From contig OZ220480.1 of assembly GCA_965116025.1 (NCBI GenBank), forward strand, positions 288,001 through 352,000: a stretch of DNA of 64,000 bases, read 5' to 3'. The stretch is from an uncultured candidatus Porisulfidus sp. (lineage in GTDB: Bacteria > Pseudomonadota > Gammaproteobacteria > Poriferisulfidales > Poriferisulfidaceae). The translations under genes and the position numbers were made by a program. Of this stretch, positions 5,503 to 31,283 are shown in pieces. A model generated the notes under the pieces. It was not told where the DNA came from. It was given only the letters and a program-made list of their open reading frames with translations, and did not search any database. Position 1 is the stretch's first letter, and each line of letters starts with the position of its first letter.

Positions 5503-5505
5503 CTT

Positions 5506-8620: not shown

Positions 8621-8674
8621 GCTCACGTCGCGGTCCACCGCGCTTCAGCGCGACCGTACAGCCAAAACATGAAG

Positions 8675-10552: not shown

Positions 10553-13500
10553 TCAGAAACGGACCTTGAGCAGGACGCTCGCGCCATAGTCGTGATTGTC
10601 GCCGTCCGACGCCGCGTAGTGAGCGTCCGCCGATAGCGTCGACTCCCCCTGCGCGTCCAGCGCCATCACGCCTCCAACGCCAATCCGTGCCCACGTGGAC
10701 TCCACCTCCGAGCGCAGGCGCGACCCCGAAGCCGTCACGTCCCGGCTCTCTGACAGCTCGCGCTCCACGTCCAATGAGGCGTACGTCTCTCCGTTCTCCA
10801 ACAGTACCCCGACCCGCGCCCGCGCGCTGTCCTCCGAGCGGAACGACACCCGACCGCTACCCGTAACGCCCGAAACGTCGTCGAAGCCGTCGATGTCCAC
10901 CCATGTCCACGTCAATCCTCCGCGCGGGATCAGCGCGAAGCCGTCCATCTCCATGCGCCTGCCGACCTCCACGCCGATCGCGTGACCCTCTCCATCCAAC
11001 CCGGACGCCACCATCCCTCGAGTCTCCGAGCTCAAGTCGACATCCTCGAACCGCGTGTACGAGAGCTCCCCGTCCGCGTACCAGCCGTCCTCCCCCCGCC
11101 AAGTCGCCGAGACCCCGACGCCCACGCCCGAGACCTCGATCTTCCCGCCGCGCTCAACGTCCGCCTCGCCATCCCGATAATGCGCGCTCACCCCCAGCAT
11201 CAGCCCCGGCGCGTCCGTAGGAACGACGAAGCCCGTCTCCACGCCCCAGCGCTCGAAATCCCAAGACAGCGCGCGACCCGCATCGTCCATCTCGGTCGTG
11301 GACATATCCGCCTCCCGCTCGCCGTCGCTCGCCAACACCCGCGCCCACGCGCCCCCGCCGTCTCGCGTCGCCGACAAACGCGCCTGACGACCGCCCGGCG
11401 CGCTCATCTCCAGCAGCACCGACGGCAGCGCCTCGTACACCCGAGCCCGGGCGTGGTACGTCCGGCTGATCTCCTTCTCGGAGTCCACCTGGAACTGATG
11501 CCCGCCCGTGATTGACTTCAGCGTGACCATCCGCTCGAACACCGCGTCATACACCCCATGCGTCCCCGTCTTCCCCGACGTCGCCTTCACCGCGTCCCCC
11601 ACGGCTATCGTCTTCGCCATGCCGGCCGTCGACTCGCGCTGGAAGACGTTCGGCGTTTTATCGCCACTATTCAGGAATTTCCCCTTGACGAACGCGATCT
11701 GCCCATGCGCGTTCTCCTTCAGGGTGACATGCAGCGCCTTGTCCGCGCTCACCGCGATCCCCGACGTCGCGCTGATCTCCGCCTTCGGCCCGATCACCAG
11801 CGTCCCGCCGTTCACCATCCGAACGCCGGCGTGCTCGCCAGCGCCGCCCATCACCTTGCCGTTGATGGTGACCGTCTGGTCGTATTGCCCCTTCCGGGCG
11901 TGGTCGGACGCGAAGGTCCGCATGCCCTTGACATGCACCCCGTCCTTCTTGGCACGGATCGTCGCCATCTCGCCTACCGTGACGCTGATCTTCCCGGCCG
12001 TGGGCGCTTCCATTTCCGTGTAGGTGGTGGCGATCTCCGCGTGCACGCCATGCCCGTCCGCCGTGATCGTCCCGCCCGACACGTCGATCTTGATTGGAAT
12101 GATCGTAGCGTTGCCCGAATCGCTCAAATCTTTGACATAGGCGAGAATCCCGTCGCCCTTCGACGTGATGTCCGCCTTCGACGCGATCTTGATCTCCCCG
12201 ATCTTGGCGGTGTGGGTGGCAGGGTCGTTTCCGTCGAACGTCTTACCTTCAAGCGTCTGGATCTGCTGACCTCCATGCATGGCCAGAACGCCAGCGGTCC
12301 TGCCTTTCAAGTCCGCCAGCTGCGTCTGGTGATCCTCCACTAACTCATCAAAGATGTCGGGCGCGTCGCCCGCGATGATCTCGCCCTTCAGGTGCTCCAC
12401 GACCACGTCGCCCCAGCCGACATTCAAAGCGACCACCCCCGACCCCTTCGCGTGGATGAGACCCTCGTTGGTGATCCGGATGTCGACCTCGTCATTAGCG
12501 GAGCCAGTCTTGACGAACACGCCATGCTCACCGACCGGCGTCGCCGCGGTCCCGATCATCGCGCCGGACTCGAGGGTCACCCGGACCGCCCCCCCGTGGA
12601 TAGTGTGATTAATGAACACCCCGCGCCCGCCCACGGTCGGCGCGTCCCCGTCCATCCCGATCCGCGCCCCGGGCCTCAGCGTCACCTCCGTGTCCCTGTT
12701 GACGTCGCTGGAGCCGTCGTTGCTGGAAATACGGAATATATTGATCCCGTCGTCCCTGATCTCGCCCTCGCTGTTGCCCGTCTGGGCGATCTCGCCCGCG
12801 AGGTCCACCGTGACGATACCGCCAAAGTGGTAACGATGATCAACTTGAATCCCGTAACCCGATTCCGACTTTATCGCGCCTCCGGTCACCTTGATCGTGA
12901 CCGGAACCACCGAATCCTGGCTCGCGCTCTCGTCCCCTTTCGTTGTGATATTAATGCCATCCGATATGGCGTCGATGTCGCCGCTCGAGACGATGGCGAT
13001 CTCGCTGCTCGGAGACGCGGCGGTGCCTGTGGCGAAATCCTTGTGCAGCACCAAAATGCCTTGTTCGCTGGCGTAGTCTTGCTCAGCGATATCCCAAGAC
13101 TCGGCCACCTTGCTGCCCGCCTCGCCCGTGAGCGTCTTCGCGTACAGAGGCCGTTGCTCCAGGCTCCGGATCGTCCCATGGTTCGTGACGCGAACGTCGC
13201 CTCCCACTTCACTATTGTCATGATCGACGAGAATTCCCTTGCTGGTCACGCTGCCCTCCGCCGTCTCGACGGCGATGTCTCCAGACCCTTCATGAAGCAC
13301 CCAGATGCCCGTGTAGTACCCGTGAACCTCGCCCCGGTTCACGATGGACACGTCGCCCTCGGCGGTGGAGCTGCTGTAATACGCCAGAATGCCATTGCGC
13401 CCTATCGGAACCTCCTCGCTCCCAACCTTCGCGTCCGCCCCGATCACGATCTCGATCTTGTCCTCTCTGTTGGAGTCGCCGGCTTGATCGCCTTGGACCC

Positions 13501-14046
13501 ATATCCCGTAGTTTCTGCTGCCAAACCGATACTGGGGGTCGATGAAGGTCGCGGTTCCCGTCGTTCCATCTCTATCGGTGAATGTGGCTTCGGTGGGCGA
13601 AGTCCAGCCACCGGCCTCGTTCACGATCCTCACCTTGCCTTCCAGCTTGACCGCCAGCGTTCCGCGGCCGACCACTTTGATCCCGTTATATCGGGTGTCG
13701 TCGTCAGGGGGAAGGAACGACTTGATGGTCGTCATCTCCCCGGAAGGCTTCACGGTCAGCGTCAAGCCCCCCGTCTGACCCGTGTACTCGATGGGATTGG
13801 GAGCGGCGCTGGTGCCGCCGTAGGTCGCGGCGGCGCAGGTGACCGTTTTGGCAGCGCTGACCGCGCCGCACTCGTCCGCCTCGGCGGAATGCGGAATCAG
13901 CGGAATGGAGAGAACGGCCGTCAATCCGGCCAGAACGGTCAGGAAACGAGGGCTATACCCCCCCCCCCCCCCCCTATGCGGGAAGACGACGAAGCGCCGC
14001 GGAGCGCGGCGCGAGCGGCGTTGGAAATGATTGAAATCTTCTTCAT
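10553..14046 (-). CDS. Autotransporter (type Va) adhesin-like protein, out of frame at a poly-G tract in its 5' end
   Basis: Long ORF 10553..13924 with Gly/Ile/Thr-rich beta-helix-like passenger, C-terminal beta-barrel and terminal Phe (...LLKVRF). Upstream ATG 14046 (MKKISII...) joins this frame only if the G tract is 15 or 18 nt. Confidence 0.85.
13958..13974 (-). repeat. Homopolymer G17 (C17 on + strand), candidate phase-variation switch
   Basis: 17 consecutive C counted at 13958-13974, within the predicted signal-peptide coding region. Confidence 0.9.
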
Positions 14047-14655
14047 CTTGGGTTCCTGAGCGAATTTGAATCTGGAAAAACCTAGCGCGATTATAACAGC
14101 CCGATATCGCGGAAGATCGTCATGGCCATGCCCTGAGGAATCACTGATCGAAGACCCTGAGATCGCTATGCTGGCGGCTTGTTCTCGAATATCGCTTGGG
14201 CATGAGAGTCCACATCGACCGGATCAGAGCAAGGAGACCGTCTCGATAAAAAACTCCCGGTTCCGCTATCATCTCCTTGCGGAAGAGACATGTCGCCATC
14301 ACCCACTGGCAGTTGACGCGTTTCGGCGATTCAACCGGAGGAAGGAAAAGAGCGTCAGATGGACGAAGCGCGGCGCGCGCGACTCCGATCAAGCCGCGCT
14401 GATGGGCGATCTCATCACGGAACGCGCCTGGCAAAATTCTCCCGATGAGAGGCGGACGACCTTTTCATGGCGGGAAAGACTCGAAGTTGGAGCGGTTCGG
14501 TTTCGACGGCGGAATTTCCGCTATGTCCGAAGGCATCATGTCTCTACCCACCGACCCAGTGGATCGCATATCAGAGTCAAATTGACGCGCGCGCGCTCCG
14601 CTTGGAGGACTCGAGAACGGTACGGATATCCTCCCACCCGCGCGAGCGACCGATC

Positions 14656-15810
14656 TCACGGTCGAGATCGAGTCCCCTCCGGCAGGAACAGTTCGCAGAG
14701 ATCGTCCAGATAGCGCCACCCTCGTGCGCTAGCGCGCACCCCCCGCGACGATTCGGCAATCAAGCCCAAGGCGCGCGCCTTGGTCAAAATTCCAGAAAGC
14801 GTTTTCCGAGATTGGCCGGTCCGGGCCTCGAACAAGGTCCATGCGACTCCCGCCTTCAAGCGCAACGCCCCCAGCATGAACTCGAATATCCGGTCCTCGG
14901 TTCCCCGGGGCCGCCGCTCTATCTCGGTCTCCCCCACCTCCGCCGCGGCCATCCAGTCTTCCGGGCTAGACGCCTGCACCGTTCGAAACACCGCCCCCGA
15001 CGCGTCCGTCAGCTTGCCATGCGCGCCCGCTCCCACGCCCAAGTAATCTCCGTATTCCCAGTAGTTCACGTTGTGCCGACAAACGGCATCGTCCCGGCAC
15101 CAAGCGGAAACCTCGTATCGCGCGTAGCCCGCGCGCTCCAGCGTCTCGGCGCCTTCCTCCTGCATTTCCCACAACGCGCCTTCGCTCGGAAGCGGGGGCG
15201 GCTTGCGCGAGAACGGCGTGCCCGGCTCCAGCGTCAATTGATACCACGACAGATGCTCCGGCCCGAGCTCCAGCGCCCGCTCAAGGTCGGCGCGCGCATG
15301 CTCCGCCCGTTGCCCAGGCAAGCCGTACATCAGGTCCAGGTTGACGCTTGAGAAGCCCGCCCGCCTGGCGAACTCGAAAGCGACGCGAACGTCCTCTCCT
15401 CCGTGCGCTCGACCGATCCGGCGCAAGTGACGATCATCGAAACTCTGCGCCCCTATCGACAAGCGATTGACGCCCGCTTCCCGATATCCCGCGAAACTCT
15501 CCCGATCCGCGGATTGCGGGTTGGCTTCCAAGGTGACCTCCAAGGAAGGGGCGCGGTCGAATTCCGCACGGACCGCGTCCAGCGCGCTCCAAATGGACGT
15601 CGAAGAGAAACGGCTGGGCGTGCCGCCTCCGAAGAACACGCTCTGGATGGCTCGACCCGAGACTTCGCGCGCCACCCGCCCGAATTCGCGCGACAGACAT
15701 TCCACATAGCGCGCCTCATCGAAAGACTTGGCCGCATGCGCGTTGAAATCGCAATACGGGCAACGCGAGACGCACCAAGGGAGGTGCGCGTACAGCGACA
15801 GCGGAATCAC
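14656..15810 (-). CDS. hemW: Radical SAM heme chaperone HemW (YggW)
   Basis: HLPWCVSRCPYCDFN, FFGGGTPS, HNVNYW; coupled to rdgB. Confidence 0.93.
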   Translation of the reverse strand: MIPLSLYAHLPWCVSRCPYCDFNAHAAKSFDEARYVECLSREFGRVAREVSGRAIQSVFFGGGTPSRFSSTSIWSALDAVRAEFDRAPSLEVTLEANPQSADRESFAGYREAGVNRLSIGAQSFDDRHLRRIGRAHGGEDVRVAFEFARRAGFSSVNLDLMYGLPGQRAEHARADLERALELGPEHLSWYQLTLEPGTPFSRKPPPLPSEGALWEMQEEGAETLERAGYARYEVSAWCRDDAVCRHNVNYWEYGDYLGVGAGAHGKLTDASGAVFRTVQASSPEDWMAAAEVGETEIERRPRGTEDRIFEFMLGALRLKAGVAWTLFEARTGQSRKTLSGILTKARALGLIAESSRGVRASARGWRYLDDLCELFLPEGTRSRP

Positions 15811-16400
15811 GCTCCGGCTTTCAGCATCTCGACCAAGGCGCGTAGAGCGACGCCACGGTGGCTGATGGCGTTCTTGACGTCTGGATCCAACTCGGCCGAG
15901 GAGCGGCCATGCGTCGGCACGTAAAACAAGGGGTCGTAGCCAAAACCCTTCTTTCCTCTCGGCGCGTCGAGAATTCTTCCTTCCCAGACTCCTTGGGCGA
16001 TCAACGGATCCGGATCATCCTCGGCGCGCGCCAAAGCGATGACGCACCGGTAGCGCGCCCCGCGCCGTTCTTCCGGCACCCCCTGAAGCTCCCGCAATAA
16101 GAGTCGGTTATTGGCCTCATCGTCGCGCCGCGGTCCCGCGTAACGGGCCGAACGCACGCCCGGCCGACCATCCAGCGCGTCCACCTCGATTCCCGAGTCG
16201 TCCGCCAGCGCGGCCATGCCGGCATGGGCGGCCGCATGGCGCGCCTTGAGCAACGCGTTCTCCTCGAACGTCGTTCCCGTCTCCTCCGCTTCCACGATCT
16301 CGAGAGAACCTTGCGTCACCAAGTTCCATCCCATGGGGCGGAGCACGGCGTCCAGTTCGCGTAGCTTTCCCGGATTGTTGCTAGCCAGCACGATCTTCAT
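15807..16400 (-). CDS. rdgB: Non-canonical purine NTP pyrophosphatase
   Basis: [27 protein letters not shown] motifs. Confidence 0.97.
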
Positions 16401-17119
16401 TTCGCGCGAATCCGCCTCTGCTGCTCCATGATTCGCCGAATCCCGTCCTCCGCGAGATCCAGCATCGCGTCCAGCTCCTTCCGCTGAAACGCATGCCCTT
16501 CCGCCGTGCCTTGAATCTCAATGATCGAGCCCGCGTCGTTCATCACCACGTTCATGTCCGTCTCCGCCGTGGAATCTTCCGCGTAATCCAGGTCCAGCCG
16601 AGCCTCTCCATCGACGATCCCCACGGAAATCGCCGCGATTCGCCCGTGCACCGGGTCGGCCCGCAGAGCTTTTCTCTCAAGCAAGGCGTCTACCGCGTCC
16701 TGCAGCGCCAAGAACGCGCCATTGATCGCGGCCGTGCGGGTTCCGCCGTCCGCCTGGAGCACGTCGCAGTCCAGAGTCAGGGTATTCTCTCCCAGCGCCT
16801 CCAAATCCAGACTAGCGCGCAAGGCGCGACCGATCAGGCGCTGAATCTCCATGGTGCGGCCAACCTGCCCGCCAAAGCGGGCCTCGCGCCGGGTGCGCTC
16901 GTTGGTGGCCCTGGGTAGCATGCCATATTCCGCGGTCACCCAGCCACTTCTCTTAGCCTTGAGCCAGCGCGGCGTGCCCGGCTCGAACGTCGCGGTGCAC
17001 AACACCCGGGTGTTTCCTTGCTCGCACAAAACCGAACCTTCGGCGTGCTGGACGAAACCGCGCTGGTAGTGAATCGAGCGCAACTCATCCGGGGCGCGAC
17101 CGCTGGGACGTTCAGGCAT
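16397..17119 (-). CDS. rph: Ribonuclease PH
   Basis: [33 protein letters not shown]. Confidence 0.98.
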
Positions 17120-17300
17120 GGGGGAGGGAGAAATTCAAAACTGCCAAAGGTTCAGGCAAAGCCGAATCAGCCCTGTCTATCCGGGCTGGTCGTCATAGAG
17201 ATTATAAAGAAGAGGCTGAATCGTACGAGGAGCTACCGAGACCCCGGATCTTGAGATTCATTTGGTCTTTCTACTCTACACCTCATCTAGAATAGAGGCA

Positions 17301-18677
17301 TCAATGGATTACAGTAGCTATGAATTTTTGGCTAGAGAAATCAATCTTTACAAATGTACCGGCTTCGATCCCGGCTACAGCAAAAACACCGTTCAAGCCC
17401 TTGACCATGTTTGCTGTTACTTCAATCTTTCCTAGCTGGTTTCCTGCTTGATCTTTCAGTGACCAATGCCCTGGCATCACAAAATTTTCGTCAATTCGGT
17501 GAGTGCCCATTACCAGATGTCGATGAGCAACTTCCAGTTCTACCAAGCATTCATGCATCTCCAGATCTCCGTAATCTTTCGTTGGCACCATCAACGAAAA
17601 CTCCTGCAGTTGATCTTTGTTAGCAATGAATCTGTATTTACCTCGTGACATTGTCACCCAAAGAGGTGTTACGGATACCAGCATTTCTGCGTGGCCTCCA
17701 GATACATCTTTTTGCACTAGAGCTTCACGCAGTTCAAGAAATGTCGCCACAGTCCCTACATCTTTGGCGACACTGATCATTAATCTATCAGTCTTACTTA
17801 GATCATCTGGTTTGAACCCTCTGCCTCGCGATACCATCCCTTCCTGAACATTAACGTCATCAATCGCGCAGAGCATGCTCATCAACGTTTCAGAGGATGG
17901 ATAATCCGTTATCGTCCTCGCTCGTTTGACGGCCTTCATCAATCTACCAAATGGAACTTCAGGCGTAACGGTCAGGATCTTGCGGCATACATTGATGATC
18001 TTGTTCCATCCACGGCCAGCACGCCCCAAACTCCAGTAAACCAAGTGACTGCCATCTAACCAGTCCAATGTTGGAACTTTACTCACTCCGAGCGCCACAA
18101 TCTCAGGCGCGAAATCAGCAGCTACCTGCTTCGCATTTTTGATCGTGTCTAGTGGTACGAAATCTCGCCGATCTGCCTCTTTGTCCATAAAGGTCCACAA
18201 TGTCTCCATCGTATTGGCTCTGTCAAGTGGAAGAAGATAGGGTTCTTTTCCAATTGGTCTGCATGCCAAATTCCATTCAACTTGGAATGCCTTCATTGCC
18301 TTGGTGAAAGCTTCAAATTTCATGCCATACCGCGACAATTGATTCCGCTCAAGCACATTTTGGACGTTCGTGGCAACCATCGGAGCACTTTCCTCAATCA
18401 AGGAAACCGCGCGTTCAAGTATTGGCATAGACTGCACCCTCTCATGGATTTTTGATAATGCTGTCCGCTCAATTTGGCGTATCCTCTCCCTGCTGACAGG
18501 AGACTTTCGTCCTGAAGAACTGGGATTATTGCCCAATTCTCTCAACGTCAAAATTTCACCGCCGTCCCAGCCAGTGCGTCTCACGACGATCAAGTACTCG
18601 CTATGATCGACCGCCATTTCCACAGCGGCACATAATTCATCCTCCAAAAACTCAAATGGCTCGACAGATGTCTTCAT
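17301..18677 (-). CDS. Hypothetical protein with N-terminal sigma70 region-4-like HTH
   Basis: TLRELG...VSRERIRQIE..AL.KI resembles the sigma70 r4.2 helix-turn-helix; no region 2 visible; lower-GC DNA. Confidence 0.7.
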   Translation of the reverse strand: MKTSVEPFEFLEDELCAAVEMAVDHSEYLIVVRRTGWDGGEILTLRELGNNPSSSGRKSPVSRERIRQIERTALSKIHERVQSMPILERAVSLIEESAPMVATNVQNVLERNQLSRYGMKFEAFTKAMKAFQVEWNLACRPIGKEPYLLPLDRANTMETLWTFMDKEADRRDFVPLDTIKNAKQVAADFAPEIVALGVSKVPTLDWLDGSHLVYWSLGRAGRGWNKIINVCRKILTVTPEVPFGRLMKAVKRARTITDYPSSETLMSMLCAIDDVNVQEGMVSRGRGFKPDDLSKTDRLMISVAKDVGTVATFLELREALVQKDVSGGHAEMLVSVTPLWVTMSRGKYRFIANKDQLQEFSLMVPTKDYGDLEMHECLVELEVAHRHLVMGTHRIDENFVMPGHWSLKDQAGNQLGKIEVTANMVKGLNGVFAVAGIEAGTFVKIDFSSQKFIATVIH

Positions 18678-18975
18678 TCGGTCTAGTCGTGTCGTGTTCC
18701 TAACTCAAGAAGAGCAAGTTCATTTTTCCAGGCGATTCAAAATCCCCTAGTAATACCCAAAAAACCTAAAATCCGACCAAGACTTTCCCAGATTGATTCC
18801 CAAGCGCACCATCTGTCAGCCGTGGCAACACTTCTCTGTGACGGAATGATAACAGGAGCCGAAGATTTTTTCAGAAACATGTCTTCCTGTAATGATCATG
18901 AAACAGTATGCGATCTATCAGTTTCGATTAGTTCATGGATTTTGGTGATCAATACTCCAATGGCTTCCGTTTCGA

Positions 18976-20310
18976 TTAGATGGAAGACAACGCGGCAAGC
19001 CCTACCACGTAACTCAGTTGTGGCGGAACCGCGTCACCTATAAGATGGGCCAACTGCTGGCGCGGAATACCATCCGCTCTGCGTCCAGAGAACCGGAAAT
19101 CATCGGGGAAGCCCTGGAGACGCGCTCCCTCGTGGGGCGTCAGCCCTCTAGCGCGAGTTGGATGCGTGAACCGCCCTCTACCAGGTGAAAGGAACCCCGT
19201 AGTTATTGTTTGAGAGGGTTGATCTGCATGAATTCGACCATAGATAGCTCCATAGGTGTGATTCCCGTCCTGATGGCAGGGGGGTCGCTCCTCGTCCGGA
19301 AGCTCCCACACATCATTTTCGATCAGGTACTTCACCCGGCGCTCATTCTCGGGAGATAATCGCGACGGCAAATCGAAATCCTCAGGTGATTCCCTATCGA
19401 CGAGATCTCCAAGTGCATCCATGGCCGACAACGGCTCACAGGTAAGCTCCTTGAAGCCCATCGTGAAGTCAAAAGGACGACTCTTTGCGGCTATCAAAAA
19501 ATGCCTTCGTCTCTTTTGTGGCGTTCCAAAGGACGACGCATCAAGCACACCCTCCCCGTTCTCAATCTTGTAACCAGCCGAGATGAGCAACTTCATCGCA
19601 CGTTCAACTACTTTTTGTCGAGCCCTCCTCACGGCAACTACGTTTTCGATAATCACGACCCTTGCATCAAGTGCTATCGCGCAAGCGACCGTTGCTACAT
19701 AAAGCTCGTTACGTGAATCCGTGCGCCGGCTCCTGTTATTGAAGTTCGAATTGCCTTCGCACGGAGGACCAGCAATAGCCATGTCCACCTTTCCTTTCAG
19801 TGAAAGAAAAATATGGTTCGTGGTCTCTATCTGTTGATATGAAACGTTGGGCCCGACCCTCATCTCCTTCCGGTAGGTAACTAAGTTTGCTATGTTCTCG
19901 CTCAACGCTCTGAGGGGACGAAGATTGTTGCTGTAAACATTGATCGCATCAGGAAGTACGTCCACGCAAAGCTGGAAAACCGGTCTCACACCGACTGCTT
20001 CGCACGCCCAGCGCACTCCCGTGGCGAAACCACCACATCCAGAACAAAGATCGACAATATTCAATTCCGGCCGTTGAGGGTTTGATTCAACCCTAGGTAC
20101 GGCTCCTCGCAAGCGGGCACTCCACCAAAGCCTCCTTAAGTCCAAATCACTGGAAGCCTGCACCGTCTCCGGTGGAAATTCCATTTCCGACACACCGAAG
20201 AAAGAGCCAGCCCTAGTCTCCCGAACGAGTCTGCCTTTACCAAAATGAAACGTCTCGGTTGGTGCAGTCAACCGACCTTTGCCACGTTTCTCTCGCCCCA
20301 GCTTCCTCAT
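18976..20310 (-). CDS. DNA (cytosine-5) methyltransferase
   Basis: Motif I DLCSGCGG, IV GPPC, VI ENV, VIII PQKRRR, IX ARLQGFPD, X GDAV. ATG 20310 overlaps the upstream stop (ATGA). Confidence 0.93.
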   Translation of the reverse strand: MRKLGREKRGKGRLTAPTETFHFGKGRLVRETRAGSFFGVSEMEFPPETVQASSDLDLRRLWWSARLRGAVPRVESNPQRPELNIVDLCSGCGGFATGVRWACEAVGVRPVFQLCVDVLPDAINVYSNNLRPLRALSENIANLVTYRKEMRVGPNVSYQQIETTNHIFLSLKGKVDMAIAGPPCEGNSNFNNRSRRTDSRNELYVATVACAIALDARVVIIENVVAVRRARQKVVERAMKLLISAGYKIENGEGVLDASSFGTPQKRRRHFLIAAKSRPFDFTMGFKELTCEPLSAMDALGDLVDRESPEDFDLPSRLSPENERRVKYLIENDVWELPDEERPPCHQDGNHTYGAIYGRIHADQPSQTITTGFLSPGRGRFTHPTRARGLTPHEGARLQGFPDDFRFSGRRADGIPRQQLAHLIGDAVPPQLSYVVGLAALSSI

Positions 20311-21038
20311 TCGACTGGACCCCAAGCACCGCGTTGCTCCCAAATGTCGCTAATAAGCTGCAAGCTTTCGGAGTCATCAAGTAATTCGAAAGCCATCGAT
20401 GCATTTCGTCTAGTCACTTCCTTGGCTAATTCCCGATACTGCTCACGGCGAAGTAATTGCTCTCCCTCTTCCGGAAATACAAACCGTATGAAGGCTCGAG
20501 CCAATTGCGGAACGCTTCCGAAATCGATTCTCACGATATGAGATTGCCAAATATCAACATCTCCCCGACGAGACAATTCGTACGGATCTTCCAACGTGGA
20601 ATCGAAAACTGCCTGTGCGCATAACCACAAGTAAGCATACATCCCCGCCTTCATCTGTCTCAATCCGAAATACTGCTCCCGCGCATGCCCTGTTTCTTGA
20701 GCTGGATAACGCCAATCAACGAGTTGCCCGAGATCGCCATCTAACGAAAACGTCAGCCAGCGCCAGAATCCCGCATCGCCAGCAATGATCGAAGGCAACT
20801 CAAGACGCTGATGTACCAACGACGCTGCCTGTCGTTCGAACGAATAGCCTGGTTTGCCAAGCTCATGAGCCAACTCCCACAGAACATTGGACAGGGCAAC
20901 TGATCTGGCTTTGTCGAAATCTGCTCCACTTGCTTGCACCGTTGCCTCTTGGACAATGGATTCGATCTCCTGCTCATCCAAGTATGCAGCGAATGCGCGA
21001 CGAGCCGCCTCCTCTGACAGGGTCGGATAAGACGACAC
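20307..21038 (-). CDS. Hypothetical protein, DUF6339-like
   Basis: 243-aa ORF with FWRWLT, DWRY and LWL motifs recalled from DUF6339 proteins next to C5 methylases; family assignment tentative. Confidence 0.55.
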   Translation of the reverse strand: MSSYPTLSEEAARRAFAAYLDEQEIESIVQEATVQASGADFDKARSVALSNVLWELAHELGKPGYSFERQAASLVHQRLELPSIIAGDAGFWRWLTFSLDGDLGQLVDWRYPAQETGHAREQYFGLRQMKAGMYAYLWLCAQAVFDSTLEDPYELSRRGDVDIWQSHIVRIDFGSVPQLARAFIRFVFPEEGEQLLRREQYRELAKEVTRRNASMAFELLDDSESLQLISDIWEQRGAWGPVE

Positions 21039-21050
21039 CGTGACTTTTCC

Positions 21051-21977
21051 CTATAGTTTGGCGAAGGAATGGTTGAGACCAACGTGATGTTGAGCCCATG
21101 CGTGGATTATTCCTATGAAATTTGGTCGCTCCATCAGTGCCAAAATTTCTTCATCGCTTAGTCTCGAAGAGGCCGACAACCATTCAAACATGACCCTCCT
21201 CAGTCCAGTTTCCTCAATGGGCTTCTCACCTTTATCGATCGCCCTTATAGCCAGCTCAGAGAAAATCGCCGCAGCCATTTCGTAGAGAATTAGATCTGAT
21301 ATTTCTCCGTCGTTCTCTAGAATTTGAAATGCTTCCCTAAGATTTTCGTTCAATAGAATTTCGACAGTGTCAGCAGGAGTACGCTCCAGATCCTCCCCCA
21401 ACCAATTAATAGTCCACACGGTACCCCGAGACATTCCAAGTTCTTCGAATTTCTCAGGAGACACCCAACGGGCCGGAATCTTTGAGGACTGGGCCATGGC
21501 GCGTATCTTGAAAGTACGGCGAGCTACGACATCTGCTTTGTGAAACGCGATACCGGACCCCCGTCTCGCAGTCTCCATGGGTGTCACTACCACGCTGATG
21601 TCCACCCGCTCAGACTGCGAAAAATCCGACCACGCGGCGGTCAGTTCGACAGGCTCATCAGGTAGTGCTTGAGCCTCACACTGATACACTCTTGCAAATC
21701 GATTTAGGTCTCGGTCACGGATTACCACAGACACGATTATTTCATTGGAATCCAAACCCGTGGCACTTGCGAGTTCGTCCAGATCGGCCTCAATTCGAAG
21801 CGCCGGCTGGAAGTTCGTCCAGAAATCCAACGTCGTAATTACTCGCGTGTCCGAATAGTCGAAAGATTCAGAAGGACCAAGCCGAAGCGCACAGGATTTT
21901 AGTCCTCCGCTAGACATCCTGAAGGGATTGATGAACTCGGTCTCATTCGCACTCCAAGAAATTTTTGCCCGGCTCAT
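21051..21977 (-). CDS. Hypothetical protein
   Basis: 308-aa ORF, ATG overlaps the ATPase stop (ATGA); no recognisable motif. Confidence 0.8.
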   Translation of the reverse strand: MSRAKISWSANETEFINPFRMSSGGLKSCALRLGPSESFDYSDTRVITTLDFWTNFQPALRIEADLDELASATGLDSNEIIVSVVIRDRDLNRFARVYQCEAQALPDEPVELTAAWSDFSQSERVDISVVVTPMETARRGSGIAFHKADVVARRTFKIRAMAQSSKIPARWVSPEKFEELGMSRGTVWTINWLGEDLERTPADTVEILLNENLREAFQILENDGEISDLILYEMAAAIFSELAIRAIDKGEKPIEETGLRRVMFEWLSASSRLSDEEILALMERPNFIGIIHAWAQHHVGLNHSFAKL

Positions 21978-23815
21978 ACGTCCTCATCCCCAAGGGACAC
22001 CGACGACCTTTTCGTGACCGTCACCGTCCAACGCGTTCTCCAAGTTTGCCGCACCCGAGCCGATGCGCGGAACGTCAAGGCTACGTCTGGAATGAGATCG
22101 ACGTCAAACGTGCCTGAGCGGTTGGATATCGATTCGCCTTTGTCATCAAACACGGTGCACGAAAGGTATGTACTCGGTCTGGCCTCTGCATCTTCTAGGA
22201 CCTGCAAAACGGCTTTCACCCTGCAGCTAACTGGCTCAAGGCTGACCCCTTCCGCCAATGCGATAGTGAAATCAAGATAATCAACTACGGGCTCACCCTC
22301 AAGGTCTCGCCACCCCTCTTTGTGAACGGTGAACGCCCTTCGTGCCAACTCTGGACGAAGTGGAAGCCCTTTTTTTCTTTTTCGGAATATGGGCCCAAGT
22401 ATCTCATCAAGGAAACTCAGACTCTCGCTCTTCGTCCTACAAATTACTTCCTTTTGTCGCGTTTGAAAATCCCGAAAGGTATCTTTCACACGGCTATGCG
22501 CGAGGCGAACTAAATCAACCGCTTGATCACCCAATGATCTTTGAAGTCGAGAACTGTTACAGTTCCACTCGTCGTGCGCCTCAGGCTCGGACAGAGCGAA
22601 ACATTTTTCGGTATCCTCACCGACAACCTCAAACACGCCAACGGCATTCGGATCGCCTTCTCTAGCATAACTCGATTTGTACTGAATCACCAAACCACCG
22701 CGAATGAGAGCTACGGTATTGGCTAGTTCGTTATGCTTTGCTTCAATTTCGCGGAGTGCCTTCAAGCATAGATGTCCGATCTCTCCATGAGCCTGGAGCT
22801 CAACTTTCTTGCTCTCATAACCTTCAGGTTTTACACCCAGCCGAATGTTTGAGAAGCAATCAATGAACGGTTTGATATCTGATCTATAGCGTGGATTCGG
22901 GGACGGAAGTTTGGCATCACCATCGAAAAACTCTAAGTCAACGTAAGATTCCGAATGTTCATCGAACATCCGTGGCCACCAGAATTTTTCGCATGCCTCA
23001 CGACAATCATATGGGGACAAATCGCAATCCAATAACATCACCGTCAAGCCGGTATCATCCGATGGCCTTGTTTCCAATCCTACGCTCTCCGCAAGCTCAT
23101 GAGCACTGGCATCAACAAGCGGCCTTGCAGGATAATCATCCGTTCCCGACGAATTGCCGAAAAACGCATGCCCTGTGTAATCACGTTCATCCAAACAGTG
23201 GCTTGGCAAGAACGCCGTGGCCATGAATCTCGCGCTCGTACCATCCGTGGATTCGCTGGGATCGAAACAGGAATAATATGCCATCATACGAATTCTGGAT
23301 GACGCGGCATAAACCATTTTTCCAACTCCGTATGAGCCCAACAACCCCCCATCGTTTTCCAATTTGTGGGACTCATAGATGGAGAGAACCAAATTGTAAA
23401 ATTGGCTTTTCACGCCGTCTGAAGTTCGCCAATTTCCGCCTAGGCCGTTGGTATTGTGATCAGAGAGGAGTAGAACAGAAATTGGAATGTCTGGATCCTT
23501 CAAATTTCCAAGGCAAGTCTCTTTATATTTGAACCAGCCATGCGCCTCTGGAAATGATCTTGCGCGTTCCGAGATTTCTTCAAGTCTAAACTTGCCGACC
23601 AAGACGGATTTCTCGTCGCCGAGAAATTGCCTCCGTCTCACGGAGAAACGTACAGGCCCATCGGCATCTCTACACCGCTCGTCAGCCGAGTTTTGTATGG
23701 CTTCCCGCATGAGAAGCTCGACATCAGTCAAGCTTGTATGCGACAAAGGATTCGCCATTTTGTCAGCAGGAACCATCATCGCGGCCTGCGGCAAGAAATG
23801 CCACTTCGGATCCAT
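21974..23815 (-). CDS. GHKL-type (MORC/MutL-like) ATPase
   Basis: N-box REAIQNSAD, G1-like DHNTNGL, G2 GSYGVGK, later GLTV. ATG 23815 preceded by AGAGGA. Confidence 0.75.
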   Translation of the reverse strand: MDPKWHFLPQAAMMVPADKMANPLSHTSLTDVELLMREAIQNSADERCRDADGPVRFSVRRRQFLGDEKSVLVGKFRLEEISERARSFPEAHGWFKYKETCLGNLKDPDIPISVLLLSDHNTNGLGGNWRTSDGVKSQFYNLVLSIYESHKLENDGGLLGSYGVGKMVYAASSRIRMMAYYSCFDPSESTDGTSARFMATAFLPSHCLDERDYTGHAFFGNSSGTDDYPARPLVDASAHELAESVGLETRPSDDTGLTVMLLDCDLSPYDCREACEKFWWPRMFDEHSESYVDLEFFDGDAKLPSPNPRYRSDIKPFIDCFSNIRLGVKPEGYESKKVELQAHGEIGHLCLKALREIEAKHNELANTVALIRGGLVIQYKSSYAREGDPNAVGVFEVVGEDTEKCFALSEPEAHDEWNCNSSRLQRSLGDQAVDLVRLAHSRVKDTFRDFQTRQKEVICRTKSESLSFLDEILGPIFRKRKKGLPLRPELARRAFTVHKEGWRDLEGEPVVDYLDFTIALAEGVSLEPVSCRVKAVLQVLEDAEARPSTYLSCTVFDDKGESISNRSGTFDVDLIPDVALTFRASARVRQTWRTRWTVTVTKRSSVSLGDEDV

Positions 23816-23823
23816 CGCGTCCT

Positions 23824-24123
23824 CTATCCGCGGCCGTCCATGCATCCAATAGGGATAGAATCTCCGTGCTTGAGAATTGTCCGTATGTGCTGATTTATAG
23901 CGATGCAACAATTCTCAAAGGCTTCCGGCTCAGAATCGCCTGATACATGAACACCCTTGAGCTCAGAACAATAAGCATGGAAGGTGCCCTCGTCCGGTTC
24001 GATGATGACCCGTACCTTGATCTTCGACTCTGATTCAGAAGCTCTTTTAGATCTGGATGAACGCAAAATTTGTTCCCGCGATCCAAACCGGACCAATTTC
24101 GCGCAGAAAAAATAATACGCCAC
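23824..24123 (-). pseudogene. HicB-family antitoxin, probably 5'-damaged; no intact hicA
   Basis: KVRVIIEPDEGTFHAYCSELKGVHVSGDSEPEAFEN...GDSIP fits the HicB pattern; no ATG at the expected start. Confidence 0.65.
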
Positions 24124-24157
24124 CGCTTCAACTCCTAAAATATAATGACATTGTAAC

Positions 24158-24936
24158 CTAGCGATTCATATCCGAAGTCCTCGCCCAAGGCTCTCCGGGC
24201 AATTTATCGACAAGAGCGATAAACACATCGCGAAACATCTCTTCTGCGGATTCTTCCGCCAGCGCTTCCGCCTTCGCCGCTGGCAACAGAAGCCGTATAT
24301 TGAGCAGAAAGCGCGGGTTGTCGAGCTTAGCGAACATCCGCTCCTGCGCCTGCGCGCGCGTGATGGTTTGGCCAGTCAGGTCGAGATGGTGGCGAAGCAT
24401 CTTGACGATTCGCCTGGTCTCCAGTCCATCGAAAACCCTGAGCGCATGCGCGAGATCGAAAAGGTCGGGATCGACGCTTCGCCGGAGAACCACGGATTCT
24501 CAAACCTTGAACGGTAAAGTTATTGGCGCGTCGAAAGCTCGGGTCTCGCGCGTATTGATCTCGATCTTCAACCGGATCCACGCTCCGTTTCCATTTTCCG
24601 CCTCGACTCGAAAACGAAGCTTTGGCGCGGTCTGACTCTGGTCGAAACTAGCGATCCGAGCCATGGCTCCAGAACGACGCGTAATTGGTCGAGAATTAGA
24701 CCGATTGGACCGCCGGACACGCGAACGAGGTCAATATCTTCAGAGTAGCGCAGCGGCTCCGAAAAGTGCAGTTTGTTGAGCGCCGTGCCACCTCGCAAGC
24801 GTAGTGCCTCGCGTAGCGCATCATCCGAGAAAATATCCACGAGAGCGCGGCTGAGTATGAGATCCTGCTCGACTTGCCGCTGATCCACCCAAGGGACAAC
24901 ATTGCCCCAAGCGATGACGTTTTGCGCCGGAATCAC
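24158..24936 (-). pseudogene. AbiEii nucleotidyltransferase toxin, inactivated
   Basis: VEQDL, RGGTALNK, RYSEDID, KIEIN and DLFDL motifs spread across frames; frameshifts near 24652 and 24501 plus an apparent internal deletion near 24460. Confidence 0.88.
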
Positions 24937-25760
24937 CCGTCGACCTCCGGCGCTCGCCGCGCGATAACCCGCCAGCGCGTATCGCGCTCCTGTGGGTCGG
25001 GCGCGAAAAATAGTTTTCCGGCTTTCCGGCGGTCAAGTTCAGTCCAGCGGCGCTCTCCCCTCGTCCGTAGCGCGCTCAGCATTGAGTCCGTCAGATTCTT
25101 ATGGCCAAGACGATCCAACAGGTATCCGAGACGCTGGACGACTGGCCGCTCCACCGTGACGGACAAGGCAGCGAGCTGGTCAGCGTCGATCTTCGGGCCA
25201 AGATCGGAAAGCGCCGTGGCGACATTGTCGATCCCGGCGGACGCCTGCGGGTAGCGCAACAAATCAAGAGCGGTGAGCGCGGGCGAGGATATCTTCATCG
25301 CGCCGGTATCGGTCTTGCGATGCTCGATTCCCGCCCCGATAGATTCCATGTCTCTGCGAAAGTAAAAGACGACCATGCTTCGCCCGGCGCGGATCTTGGG
25401 AAGGCGCTTGGCCGAGACGGTCTGAAATTCCATTATGGCTTGATGAGTCGCCCCATGAAATTCCGCGGCTTTGAGAAGCCCGACATAGTACGCTTGACCC
25501 TCGTAGCGCATGAGCTCGTCGATGTACCAAGTCGGTGGTGGCGCGCCCCAAGACGAGAATTGCGGGGGAACGACGACATAGAAACCCTGTCGAGGAGCCA
25601 GCAAGACCCCGCCGCGCTGCAGCCGCTCCGCGGCATCCAAGAACGCGCCATGCCCGAGGCCCAGTTTTTCTTCGGCCTCCTCGGCGGTGAAAACCACGCG
25701 CCCTCTCGAGAGAAGGCTAATGGCATAGTTTGACAGAACCGAACGTTGACCATTAATCAT
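24933..25760 (-). CDS. Type IV TA AbiEi-family antitoxin
   Basis: N-terminal wHTH-like region, YYVGLLKAAEFHGATHQA, SSPALTALDL, QRLGYLLD; GTGA overlap with the toxin gene. Confidence 0.85.
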   Translation of the reverse strand: MINGQRSVLSNYAISLLSRGRVVFTAEEAEEKLGLGHGAFLDAAERLQRGGVLLAPRQGFYVVVPPQFSSWGAPPPTWYIDELMRYEGQAYYVGLLKAAEFHGATHQAIMEFQTVSAKRLPKIRAGRSMVVFYFRRDMESIGAGIEHRKTDTGAMKISSPALTALDLLRYPQASAGIDNVATALSDLGPKIDADQLAALSVTVERPVVQRLGYLLDRLGHKNLTDSMLSALRTRGERRWTELDRRKAGKLFFAPDPQERDTRWRVIARRAPEVDG

Positions 25761-25929
25761 GAATGCCTTCGCCTCATAAACGCGGAATCCCCGGCCAAAC
25801 CCCACGATGAGAAATAGATTCGTTAATAAGATATCCGCTATATGTTCGGATATATTAACATGATTTACAGGAAATCATGCGTAGTCATCGAAGCGATAAG
25901 GTGACAGGCGAAACTATTCGCCCCCCTGA

Positions 25930-27960
<2,031 letters not shown>

Positions 27961-27962
27961 GC

Positions 27963-30230
27963 ATGTCCCAAACCTCGCTGTTCGAATCCCGGGAAGCCAA
28001 CCCCAGCGCCCGGCCACTCGCCACGTTCGTGGAGGACGCCTACCTCAACTACTCCATGTACGTCATACTCGACCGCGCTCTCCCGCACTTGGCCGACGGC
28101 CTGAAGCCGGTGCAGCGGCGCATCGTGTACGCCATGTCAGAGCTCGGCTTGAAAGCCACGAGCAAACCCAAGAAGTCCGCGCGCGCCATCGGCGACGTCA
28201 TCGGGAAATACCACCCCCACGGCGACCAAGCCTGCTACGAGGCCATGGTCCTGATGGCTCAGGATTTCGCGTACCGCTATCCCTTAGTCGCGGGCCAAGG
28301 CAATTGGGGCTCGGCCGACGACCCGAAGTCCTTCGCCGCCATGCGCTACACGGAGGCGCGCCTGACCCCCTACGCGCAAGCCTTGCTGGCGGAACTGGAC
28401 CAAGCCACCGTCGATTGGCAGCCCAACTTCGACGGCGCTCTGGAAGAGCCACGGCTTCTGCCCGCGCGCCTGCCCAACGTGCTGCTCAACGGCACGACCG
28501 GCATCGCGGTCGGCCTGTCCACCGACATCCCGCCGCACAATCTGCGCGAGGTCGTCAACGCGTGCGTCAAACTTTTGGAAAGCCCCCGGTCCTCCGTGGC
28601 CGAACTGTGCGAGCACGTGAAAGGGCCGGACTACCCGACCGGAGGCGAGATCCTCTCCTCGCCGGAAGAACTGCGCCAGATCTACGAGACCGGAACCGGG
28701 ACCATCCGCGTCCGAGCTAGCATCGTCGACGAGAAAGAGGGGCTGGTCGTCACCGCGTTGCCTTACCAAGTTTCCGGCTCGCGCGTCATGACGCAGATCG
28801 CGCAGCAGATGCGCGAGAAAAAACTGCCCATGGTCGAGGACCTGCGCGACGAATCCGACCATGAGACCCCGACGCGGCTGGTGATCGTCCCCCGAAACAA
28901 ACGAGTGGACCGAGAGGCGCTTCTGCTGCACCTGTTCGCCACCACCGACCTGGAGAGGTCGGCGCGAGTCAACCTCAACGTCATCGACTTGGACCGCCGC
29001 CCGAAGATCATGGACCTGCGCTCCCTGCTGCGATCTTGGCTGGAGTTTCGCAAGAACGCCGTCACCCGCCGGCTGAACCACCGACTGGAGGCGGTCAACA
29101 GGCGATTGCATCTACTGGAGGGCCTGCTCGTCGCGCACGCCAACTTGGACGAGGTCATCCGCATCATCCGAAACGAGGACGAGCCTAAGCCCGTATTGAT
29201 GAGAACGTTTCTCCTGAGCCAGGAGCAGGCCGAGGCGATTCTGGAGATCCGCCTGCGGCAGCTGGCGAAGCTGGAGCGCGAGAAGCTGGAGCGCGAGCGA
29301 CGGGACCTCGTCGCCGAGAAAGAGAGGATCGAGAAAACCCTCGCCTCTCCCGCCCGCCTGAAAACCTTGATCAAGAAAGAGTTGCGGGAAGATGCCGAGC
29401 GCTACGGCGATGATCGGCGTAGCTGGATCGTGTCGGACGCTCCGCAGGCGCGGGCGATGGACCTGTCGAAACTCGCTCCCGCGGAGTCCGTGACCGTGGT
29501 CCTGTCCCGAAGCGGGCTCGCGCGCTCCGCCAAAGGCCACGAGATCGATCCCTCCACGCTATCCTATAAGACCGACGACGCTCTGCAGGCCAGCGCGCGC
29601 GCGCGGAGCAACCAAACCGCGCGGTTCCTCGACAGCCACGGGCGAGTGTACGCCATGCCGGTGGCTCGGCTGCCTTCCGCGCGTAATTTCGGCGAACCTC
29701 TGACGCGGCATTTCACTCCCCCGTCTGGAGCGCGATTCATCGGAGTGATGACCAACGAGCCGGATTTTCACTGGCTGCTGGGCACCAGCTTCGGCTACGG
29801 ATTTCTCATCCCCAATGATCGTCTCGAGACCCGAAGCAAGTCTGGACGCGCCACCCTGACCGTGCCGGACGGAGCCATCGCGTTGCAGCCCCACCCCGTG
29901 CCGGATCCGAATCGGACCTACGTTGTGGCCGCGACCAGCGCCGGAAACCTGCTGATGGTCAAGGCGTCGGAATTGCCGGTTCTCGGCCGGGGACGCGGCA
30001 ACAAAGTTATCCAAATCGCCGGAACTCAAATAAAAGACCCCAAGGGCGAGCGAGTCACGATGCTGGCCACCTTGACGGAAAAGCAGGCCCTGGTCCTGTT
30101 CACCCGAGCGGCCCACCGAGTCATGCACTTCAAGGACCTTCTCGAGCACCAGGGATCGCGAGGCGGGCGTGGAGTCAAGCTGTCTAAGAGCTGGCTGAAC
30201 TTCCAGCGCTTCGAGGTTCGGGACTTATAA
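27963..30230 (+). CDS. parC: DNA topoisomerase IV subunit A
   Basis: [33 protein letters not shown]. Confidence 0.97.
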
Positions 30231-30239
30231 TCCGGGGTC

Positions 30240-31133
30240 ATGAGAATTCTTCTATTCCTCGGCGTCAACTTCACCATCCTCCTGGTCCTCGGCATCGTCT
30301 TCTCGATGCTGGGCATCGACGGACTGCTCGACGCCCAGGGCGTTCATCTGGACTTGACGGCGTTGCTGGTCTATTCCCTCGTCATCGGCTTCACGGGCTC
30401 TTTCCTGTCACTCGCCCTATCGAAATGGATCGCCAAGCGAACCATGCGGGTGCGCGTCATTGAGCGACCCGCGAACGGAACGGAGCGATGGCTCGTGGAC
30501 ACGGCGCGCCGGCAAGCGGAAGTCTGCCATATAAAGTCTCCCGAGATCGGGATATTCGAATCCTCGCAACCGAACGCGTTCGCCACCGGAATGAGCAAGA
30601 ATAACGCCTTGGTCGCGGTCAGCGCCGGATTGCTCAAGCAGATGAGCCAAGACGAGGTGGAGGCCGTGTTGGGCCACGAGATGGCCCACGTCGCTAACGG
30701 CGACATGGTGACCATGGCTCTGCTGCAGGGCGTGCTGAACACCTTCGTCGTGTTCTTGTCCCGGGTTATCGGGTTTCTGGTGGACCGATTCGTGTTTCGG
30801 GTGCAGCGCGGATTCGGGCCCGGCTACTACATCGTCTCGATCATCGCGCAGATCTTGCTGTCGGTTCTAGCCACCGTCGTCGTCATGTGGTTCTCCCGGA
30901 GGCGAGAGTTTCGCGCGGACGCGGGCGGGGCCTATCTGGCCGGTCGCGACAAGATGATCTCCGCGCTGCAGCGCCTGCGCGAGGTCAGCCAGCCCCGAGA
31001 CCTTCCAGAAACGATGGCGGCTTTCGGCATCTCCGGGACCCGAGCGACCTCAAGCCTGCGTAGACTTTTCCTTTCGCACCCGCCCTTGGAAGACCGGATT
31101 CGCGCGCTACAGAATAATGAGGTCCAGCCCTGA
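30240..31133 (+). CDS. htpX: Membrane zinc protease HtpX
   Basis: PNAFATG, HEMAHVANGDMVT, SRRREFRAD, SHPPLEDRI. Confidence 0.96.
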   Translation: MRILLFLGVNFTILLVLGIVFSMLGIDGLLDAQGVHLDLTALLVYSLVIGFTGSFLSLALSKWIAKRTMRVRVIERPANGTERWLVDTARRQAEVCHIKSPEIGIFESSQPNAFATGMSKNNALVAVSAGLLKQMSQDEVEAVLGHEMAHVANGDMVTMALLQGVLNTFVVFLSRVIGFLVDRFVFRVQRGFGPGYYIVSIIAQILLSVLATVVVMWFSRRREFRADAGGAYLAGRDKMISALQRLREVSQPRDLPETMAAFGISGTRATSSLRRLFLSHPPLEDRIRALQNNEVQP

Positions 31134-31139
31134 TTCGCC

Positions 31140-31274
31140 ATGAATCGAGCGGCTAACATCAACCACTCAATTCTGGTCTGGGCGCGAGAGACGGCGGGGC
31201 TTTCACCGAAAGACGCGGCCCATAAAATCGGCCTAATATCGTCACCCCGCAAAAGCGCGAATGCCTACCCCTGA
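31140..31274 (+). pseudogene. Truncated XRE-type HTH regulator fragment (44 aa)
   Basis: MNRAANINHSILVWARETAGLSPKDAAHKIG resembles the N-terminus of XRE/ImmA(IrrE) proteins, then stops. Confidence 0.6.
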
Positions 31275-31283
31275 TGAGATTCC

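Follow-up and report, generated by a model that had tools for sequence, protein, structure and literature searches.

A candidate methylation-gated defence cassette joining a C5 methylase to a conserved three-protein ATPase module in a Porisulfidus genome

The cassette and the closest described systems

In 2008, a role in restriction-modification (R-M) was predicted for ATPases of the MORC and paraMORC type, in systems that also comprise C5-cytosine DNA methylases (Dcm), Vsr, superfamily II (SFII) helicases and nucleases of the restriction endonuclease (RE) fold (PMC2292703). The same source describes the paraMORC2 group as carrying an N-terminal GHKL domain and a strongly conserved ExxxH hallmark, as occurring together with an SFII helicase-like gene, cytosine methylases, Vsr and RE-fold nucleases, and as having a patchy, mobile distribution, mainly in cyanobacteria and Gram-positives (PMC2292703). 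The stretch of DNA analysed here, referred to as the window, comprises 64,000 nucleotides from an uncultured candidatus Porisulfidus sp. (contig OZ220480.1, positions 288,001 to 352,000). It carries a cassette of four co-directional minus-strand genes (18976-23815), which encode a putative ATPase (A), a protein outside described families (B), a DUF6339-like protein (C) and a C5-cytosine DNA methylase. Set beside protein A by description only, paraMORC2 resembles it in the GHKL motifs, the ExxxH motif, the company of Dcm and Vsr and the patchy spread, and differs in that the clade to which the window belongs is made up mostly of Pseudomonadota and Acidobacteriota.

Judged from protein profiles, the nearest catalogued entry to the A-B-C trio is PDC-M33, a PADLOC candidate. 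Its three proteins agree in size and order with those of the window (profiles of 627, 289 and 247-346 positions, compared with 613, 308 and 243 residues), its A model matches the window ATPase, and a Dcm adjoins the trio in loci with a strong PDC-M33A match as well. The two are not identical, however: the PDC-M33B model is unmatched by gene B (an hhalign comparison of a PDC-M33B-positive protein with the B family reaches a probability of 1.7%), and the methylase gene lies downstream of the trio in the window. In metagenome loci of the PDC-M33 clade, a Dcm is present in 12 of 17 and is situated directly upstream of the trio in 11 of these 12; in the other five loci, the contig extends <0.7 kb beyond the ATPase on its upstream side. 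The cassette is a variant of an already catalogued, putative system type and is not wholly novel, so that the word used for it in an earlier note on this DNA, written from the letters and the open reading frames (ORFs), was too strong. The family of which it is a member is widespread and consists, by prediction, of probable anti-phage systems.

The second close relative is the putative 'Type I' system of Miller et al. (2022), which is described as consisting of a Z1 protein, a PD-(D/E)xK protein, a cytosine methylase and three additional genes, and as being associated with DNA-repair endonucleases (PMC9523054). Its content is that of the Z1-type loci treated below (Z1, DUF4420, A-B-C, Dcm and Vsr). 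Going by the gene counts, the three additional genes are probably A-B-C. The window has the cytosine methylase but lacks the Z1 and PD-(D/E)xK (DUF4420) core genes. MzaABCDE is reflected in the sister loci, which hold MzaC-like Z1 (6.4e-57; values in this notation are E-values throughout), MzaD-like DUF4420 and MzaB-like HATPase_c_3 proteins. The proteins of the window, in contrast, are unmatched by the MzaB, MzaC, MzaD and MzaE models, and A is not a HATPase_c_3 protein by Pfam. The accessory 458-aa protein encoded downstream of the cassette shares a sigma-region-4-like helix-turn-helix (HTH) with the C-terminus of MzaA, at 1.2e-3 and with 17.8 bits, the cut-off being 800.

The remaining likenesses are more remote. 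BREX, DISARM and Dnd/Ssp, as they are generally understood, are modification-coupled systems that have no classical restriction enzyme and follow a functionally analogous logic, in which a self-marking enzyme is joined to a multi-protein, ATP-using module; the methylase apart, none of their component models matches a window protein. In the same genome, a second copy of the trio adjoins SspA/DndA-, SspD/BrxP- and DUF262-type genes. The window methylase has DruM2 of Druantia type II as its best PADLOC model (2.9e-77), and DruE, DruF and DruG are unmatched in the window proteins.

Four coupled genes and their relatives

The junctions of the cassette, read from the sequence, are tight. Genes A and B are joined by an ATGA overlap, as are gene C and the methylase gene, and the B/C junction consists of TAG, 12 nt and GTG. 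The start of gene A is taken to be ATG 23815, as set by its 613-aa relatives, and is the same in all relatives. Translational coupling joins an intact C5 methylase to A-B-C, a conserved module of three proteins. The earlier note had described these overlaps and the gap with every coordinate correct, and also the visibly lower GC content of the DNA between the genes it named rph and parE (0.496 in 17120-23815, compared with 0.649 in 1-17119 and 0.596 in 26095-64000).

Its labels for the DUF6339-like protein and the methylase hold as well. The methylase matches PF00145 (7.6e-36) and reaches 100.9 bits with TIGR00675, the cut-off of which is 100.65. Its motifs are intact and include the catalytic Pro-Cys (P183-C184), ENV, QxRxR and GDAVP. 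No restriction endonuclease (REase) family match was found beside it with Pfam, PADLOC, NCBIfam and PHROGs, searches that an unrecognisably novel REase would escape. The five cassette proteins, the 458-aa protein included, have no match to Z1, Vsr, helicase or nuclease families in Pfam, PADLOC and NCBIfam, in agreement with what had been read from the letters, and nuclease-type families are likewise unmatched in PHROGs, in a scan of four of these proteins that did not include the methylase. Neither Z1-family hidden Markov models (HMMs) nor DUF4420 match any of the six frames of window 13000-32000.

The gene content of the family was followed in 80 loci, obtained from a scan with the ATPase alignment and limited to one genome per species, whose ORFs were clustered and searched for in six frames with the cluster HMMs. 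There are 36 loci that contain the full trio without Z1 or DUF4420, 31 of which have at least 3 kb of upstream DNA. Each of the 36 carries a Dcm, which in 34 cases follows directly downstream in the same orientation. A linked Vsr is found in 26, a small conserved gene upstream of the trio (family F10) in 17 and a relative of the 458-aa gene (family F8) in 11. Z1 and/or DUF4420 are found in another 36 loci. The trio is complete in 31 of these, each of which has a Dcm and 25 of which have a Vsr, and some add an AIPR, HNH or HATPase_c_3 protein. The remaining eight loci are fragments or odd. With the trio beside a C5 methylase in 36/36 and 31/31 loci, the proposal of a methylation-based system stands as to its kind. 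The possibility raised together with it, that every homologous locus has additional nuclease genes, does not hold for Z1 and DUF4420, absent from 36 loci; Vsr is present in 26 of those 36. Among 400 other genomes of the phylum, only four match PDC-M33A, and in three of them a Dcm lies beside the trio, in three different gene orders. A first metagenome scan with a single-protein query found nothing.

In a tree of 73 ATPase sequences (LG+G4, quick search, with several long branches), the loci without Z1 form one clade of 32 rows, which spans six phyla and has a Shimodaira-Hasegawa-like approximate likelihood-ratio test (SH-aLRT) value of 99. Two further clades hold the Z1-type loci, and the PDC-M33 clade branches separately, outside these. 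The nearest relatives of the window ATPase (69-70% identity) are found in metagenome-assembled genomes labelled Thiotrichales and Pseudomonadales, where the gene order is A-B-C-Dcm-F8 as in the window; one of them has a Vsr and one does not. The identity of A, B, C and Dcm to their window counterparts drops in step, being 70/66/75/73% in locus L001 and 50/46/59/63% in locus L005. Compared with the nearest relatives, the non-synonymous divergence (dN) of the four cassette genes is 0.16-0.21. The ratio of non-synonymous to synonymous divergence (dN/dS) lies at 0.07-0.14 in each of the five genes, dS being close to saturation. The four genes are inherited and evolve as a unit, under purifying selection. 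Because of its clade position, locus content and dN/dS, the window is a typical intact, stand-alone member of the family. The earlier alternative, that it is the 3' half of a larger Z1/PD-(D/E)xK locus, is not supported, given the separate clade and the 31 loci with ample upstream DNA and neither Z1 nor DUF4420.

Protein A has no Pfam, NCBIfam or PHROGs family. Its conserved residues were counted over 53 sequences that cover all three locus architectures. Three groups of residues are invariant in 53/53 sequences (R37, E38, Q41, N42 and D45; D119, G124 and L125; G160, G163 and G165), and the corresponding motifs, RExxQNxxD, DxxxxGLxG and GSxGxGK, stand in the order of GHKL motifs I-III. R372, E410, H414 and W417 are also invariant in all 53, with E410 and H414 forming an ExxxH motif that is present in the PDC-M33-clade alignment too. 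The PDC-M33A HMM matches A at 4.8e-16 and 56.5 bits (6.7e-14 in the genome scan) over profile positions 31-206 of 627, a match confined to the N-terminal 190 residues. Two distant members of the A family, which share 26% identity with each other and are tied to the window protein by a BLAST chain, match HATPase_c_3 weakly (7.6e-4 and 5.8e-4). In the ESM Atlas, the ten best named neighbours of A all belong to HATPase_c_3 or sacsin (SACS) clusters (0.87-0.89), which is a lead only, and a search with the whole ATPase gives unnamed clusters only. The ordered invariant motifs, the PDC-M33A match, the weak HATPase_c_3 matches of distant members and the language-model neighbours together are the reason for calling A a GHKL-type ATPase, as the earlier note did, a label that finds no profile support in Pfam, the PDB or hhalign. 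A may be a paraMORC-like member of this superfamily; its placement in paraMORC2 comes from the motif only and is a lead.

A 940-aa ORF in which the ATPase appears fused to B (P0077, L011:7980-10802) was considered as a Rosetta-stone link and rejected. Its residues ~530-620, about 90 in number, are Arg/Gly-rich and unalignable and its ATPase match ends at 514, so it is most likely a frameshift read-through.

Protein B has no Pfam, NCBIfam or PHROGs family and no PADLOC match even at E<=10. Its family is nevertheless large, with 797 representatives at E<=1e-3 among 1.84 billion proteins, and its three sequence clusters cross-match via each other's HMMs. None of its residues is invariant; P18 alone is nearly so (129/131 rows). 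The AlphaFold2 model of B, built from a deep alignment (predicted local distance difference test score, pLDDT, 94.3; predicted TM-score, pTM, 0.72), combines an immunoglobulin (Ig)/fibronectin type III (FnIII)-like β-sandwich, which spans about residues 18-162, with a further β region and, at the C-terminus, a helical bundle (residues 211-307). Foldseek finds no PDB match to it at E<=1e-3, and in a wide VIA-align search the best Z is 8.1 (root-mean-square deviation 3.3, 97 aligned), with generic Ig/FnIII domains only. A kinship of B to the Ig-like AGS-C domain of a Pycsar cyclase (VIA-align Z 7.0) was not accepted, the likeness being that of Ig domains in general. In one acidobacterial locus (L006:9812-12602), gene B is split around a 497-aa ORF, probably an insertion sequence.

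Protein C matches PF19866 (DUF6339) at 5.4e-9 and 36.5 bits, above the cut-off of 23.2, over profile positions 2-173 of 175. Of the two PDC-M33C models, PDLC04586 matches its C-terminal half only (6.7e-4, 17.2 bits) and PDLC04585 does not match; no PHROGs match was found. The AlphaFold2 model of C, likewise built from a deep alignment, is all-α (pLDDT 94.8, pTM 0.91). Foldseek returns no matches to it in the PDB at E<=1e-3 and none in BFVD, and the best Z in the wide VIA-align search is 5.5, over 54-64 residues. Its invariant residues are limited to W92, W138, D162 and R202. The long DUF6339 proteins of Z1-type loci have C-terminal extensions, for which there is no Pfam or PDB match. Another acidobacterial locus (L010:10793-13223) has about 1.9 kb between the DUF6339 gene and Dcm, probably also an insertion sequence.

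A second trio, the island and its neighbours

The genome, a single contig of 2.02 Mb, contains a second, distant trio outside the window, at ~666,500-675,600 (L095:8482-17557), which also lies in lower-GC DNA. Its genes and their matches are given in Table 1; the B-like protein is the only match of the PDC-M33B model in the genome. The gene that follows the trio, which is PAPS-reductase-like, adjoins trios again in another genome (G103; 38% identity, 1.6e-89) and on a metagenome contig (L104). There is no C5 methylase near the second trio, and no SspB/SspC- or DndD/E-like gene was seen between its genes in the PADLOC scan, beyond which no search with Dnd/Ssp partner models was made. From its gene content, the second locus may represent a system of the phosphorothioation type that is based on the same trio.

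The A-B-C module occurs beside Z1 and DUF4420 nuclease loci, beside Dcm alone, or beside phosphorothioation-type genes. With a Dcm in the window and phosphorothioation-type genes at the second trio, it is therefore tied to DNA-modification genes of two chemistries. This link is the strongest clue to the role of the trio, though it cuts both ways. The genome has seven C5-methylase matches at six places; one gene, at 623-624 kb, is apparently split. Its only Vsr, at 1.53 Mb, lies beside an HNH-like ORF and is unlinked to any methylase.

The cassette is part of an island inserted between rph and parE, both of which are conserved in 15/15 congeners. This gap measures 8,975 bp here, about 250 bp in four congeners and 1.0-1.2 kb in five (nine of the 15 congeners), and looks like an insertion hot spot. 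ATPase A was found in none of the 40 relatives searched, 15 of which are congeners. Its lower GC, its absence from the 40 relatives and the empty site in congeners show that the cassette is horizontally acquired and mobile. The ends of the island carry no tRNA and no att-like flanking repeats, and scans of the locus for promoters and terminators gave results at chance level.

Downstream of the methylase gene, the spacer contains two 14-nt direct repeats (18918-18931 and 18966-18979, 48 bp apart), which stand upstream of the 458-aa gene and may form an operator. No coding remnant of vsr or of an RNA-polymerase α C-terminal domain (α-CTD) was found in this spacer. The 458-aa protein has an HTH at residues ~6-85 (Sigma70_r4 in Pfam, 0.0018) and a C-terminal part without family. 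Its NCBIfam sigma matches are weak, and sigma factors account for 10 of its 12 weak rows in the PDB. Its relatives have 560-760 residues and one or two α-CTD domains (RNA_pol_A_CTD 1.6e-30), and tblastn with one of them (from locus L002) aligns the window to residues 180-643 only. The 458-aa protein is probably an optional regulator or sensor. A protein made up of copies of α-CTD and sigma region 4 might, speculatively, act as a decoy that draws off RNA-polymerase-targeting phage factors.

Upstream of the cassette there is a HicB-like ORF, which ends 8 nt before the ATPase start and for which no HicA partner was seen. It was considered as the F10 gene of the sister loci and rejected as unrelated. 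Farther upstream lie the AbiE genes. The two ORFs of the split AbiEii correspond to profile positions 1-111 (122-aa ORF) and 171-257 (111-aa ORF) of 260. The HicB/AbiE stretch has an intermediate GC of 0.56, which suggests that it was acquired separately from the cassette, and these neighbours are not conserved parts of it. As remnants of other defence genes beside the cassette, they fit a defence setting.

Table 1. Features of the window and of the second locus (window coordinates; the genes of the second locus are given by their order)
Feature	Position	Strand	Basis
Accessory gene (family F8), 458 aa, co-directional, last before rph	17301-18677	-	weak sigma-70 region-4-like HTH
Spacer, 298 bp, methylase to downstream gene	18678-18975		two 14-nt direct repeats
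C5-cytosine DNA methyltransferase, 444 aa from ATG 20310	18976-20310	-	ORF 18976-20343, PF00145
Gene C, 243-aa DUF6339-like all-alpha protein	20307-21038	-	ORF, PF19866
Gene B, 308-aa protein outside described families	21051-21977	-	ORF
Gene A, 613-aa putative ATPase	21974-23815	-	ORF extends to 23911
HicB-like ORF, 99 aa	23824-24123		phrog_497 1.2e-6, Pfam 0.02 only
AbiEii toxin, split in two ORFs	24568-24936 and 24158-24493		Pfam, PADLOC
AbiEi antitoxin, intact, 290 aa	24933-25805		Pfam, PADLOC
Inserted island, rph to parE	17120-26094		cassette + HicB-like ORF + AbiE genes
Second locus, ATPase	first in order		PDC-M33A 2e-33, HATPase_c_3 7.6e-4
Second locus, B-like protein	second in order		PDC-M33B 1.3e-8
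Second locus, DUF6339-like protein	third in order		7.2e-5
Second locus, PAPS-reductase-like protein	fourth in order		SspD 1.8e-6, BrxP 5e-6
Second locus, cysteine desulfurase	fifth in order		SspA 5e-139, DndA 5e-137
Second locus, DUF262/GmrSD_N protein	sixth in order		
Second locus, HNH protein	seventh in order		

What the cassette may do

Taken together, these features favour reading the locus as a mobile, methylation-gated, restriction-like defence cassette, to which we assign a probability of roughly 0.5. In such a system, Dcm would mark the host's own DNA, and the A-B-C complex, by binding and hydrolysing ATP in a GHKL clamp cycle, would engage unmarked DNA and stop its replication or expression. 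There are three candidates for the step that inactivates the target. It could be carried out by the invariant E410-x3-H414(-D415) site of the ATPase; a Vsr-type nickase could be recruited, by analogy with MutL and Vsr, Vsr being linked in 26/36 sister loci and having a single, unlinked copy in this genome; or the DNA could be trapped or compacted without any nuclease.

Several observations weigh against this reading. Library scans of A, B, C and the 458-aa protein turn up neither a nuclease or helicase nor any other effector domain. Proteins B and C have no catalytic-looking invariants and no solved-fold match, and neither looks enzymatic in sequence or model; with few invariants and no nuclease match, the suggestion in the earlier note that one of these two proteins is the effector is not supported. 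The ATPase itself is difficult to place: Pfam GHKL models match 0 of the 53 A-family members, phmmer with A and hmmsearch with the family profile give no matches in the PDB, and hhalign against a HATPase_c_3 alignment gives a probability of 2.4%, with nothing significant against a single HATPase_c_3 protein either. The window has no linked Vsr, unlike 26/36 sister loci, and its 458-aa protein is shorter than every relative and without the α-CTD part. At the second locus, the trio could equally replace the missing SspB/SspC-type modification partners. The literature adds to the doubt. The PDC candidates, 145 in number, are described as untested, and a 2026 preprint still calls the roles of paraMORC proteins proposed (10.64898/2026.09.30.754977). 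In favour of the reading, the PDC candidates were found within loci of BREX, DISARM and type I R-M (10.1101/2024.01.29.577857). Literature searches, which did not extend to the supplementary tables where they may be named, found no paper on PDC-M33 or DUF6339, and no experiment on any family member was found.

The alternative that survives best, though we consider it unlikely, puts the trio on the modification side, as an ATP-driven scanning or loading complex by which the neighbouring modifying enzyme, be it Dcm or a PAPS-reductase-type protein, is assisted or controlled. The window would then be a modification-only (epigenetic or anti-restriction) module, and restriction would be the task of Z1/DUF4420 or DUF262/HNH proteins in larger loci. 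The arrangement of the second locus, where the trio precedes SspD/BrxP-like and SspA/DndA-like genes and DUF262 and HNH proteins are plausible restriction parts, speaks for this, as do the lack of an effector domain in the trio and the fact that Z1-type loci have nucleases of their own. C5 methylases of this family, however, have a target-recognition region of their own and work without a helper. Moreover, 36 loci in six phyla keep the trio and Dcm under purifying selection and with no other restriction gene, which is hard to explain for a mere helper.

A more specific and rather doubtful form of the defence reading would dispense with nucleases altogether. A-B-C would be a 'reader-clamp' that is indifferent to the chemistry of the mark (5-methylcytosine in the window, a sulfur-based one at the second locus) and in which the paraMORC-type GHKL ATPase, with the Ig-like B as an adaptor and with the DUF6339 protein C, would close on unmarked DNA and silence it by ATP-driven entrapment or compaction.

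It is improbable that the cassette is instead a helper of very-short-patch repair, in which a MutL-like ATPase and two adaptors stimulate Vsr at T:G mismatches that arise from deaminated 5-methylcytosine, and which would limit the mutational cost of methylation and not defend against phages. Linkage of Vsr to most loci of both kinds (26/36 without Z1, 25/31 Z1-type), the one unlinked Vsr in the genome and the functional interaction of Escherichia coli MutL with Vsr, as described in PMC2292703, are in keeping with such a role. Yet ten of the 36 loci without Z1, and the window, lack a linked Vsr; distant trios stand beside phosphorothioation-type genes, which give no T:G mismatches; the module is embedded in Z1/DUF4420/AIPR/HNH loci; and the family is patchy and mobile, with 0/40 relatives and 4/400 other genomes of the phylum having it. 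Finally, a decaying, functionless remnant of a larger Z1/DUF4420 (Mza-like) system, with its upstream part replaced by hicB/abiE, could be suspected from the Z1/DUF4420 genes in 36/72 classifiable related loci, the split AbiEii next to it, the 458-aa protein without its α-CTD part and the missing Vsr, but is very hard to reconcile with a window ATPase deep in the 32-row clade, where no member has Z1/DUF4420, with the upstream sequence of at least 3 kb in 31/36 loci without Z1, with an outgroup PDC-M33 clade that is also without Z1, or with four core genes that are full length, have dN/dS of 0.07-0.14 and retain all family-invariant residues and the catalytic methylase motifs.

If the cassette is a defence system, the window holds its minimal form, which consists of a methylase and three proteins and includes neither a helicase nor a recognisable nuclease. 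Proteins B and C, confidently folded in the models and without a solved structural relative, are targets for structure determination. The presence of two distant trios in one small, complete genome, one with Dcm and the other with phosphorothioation-type genes, makes the role of the ATPase module directly testable, and the key question is whether the module senses that a DNA mark is missing, irrespective of the chemistry of that mark. Should the nuclease-free reader-clamp prove true, it would be a bacterial counterpart, and possibly a forerunner, of the methylation-linked silencing mediated by MORC proteins in eukaryotes, and Z1 and DUF4420 would be later add-ons.

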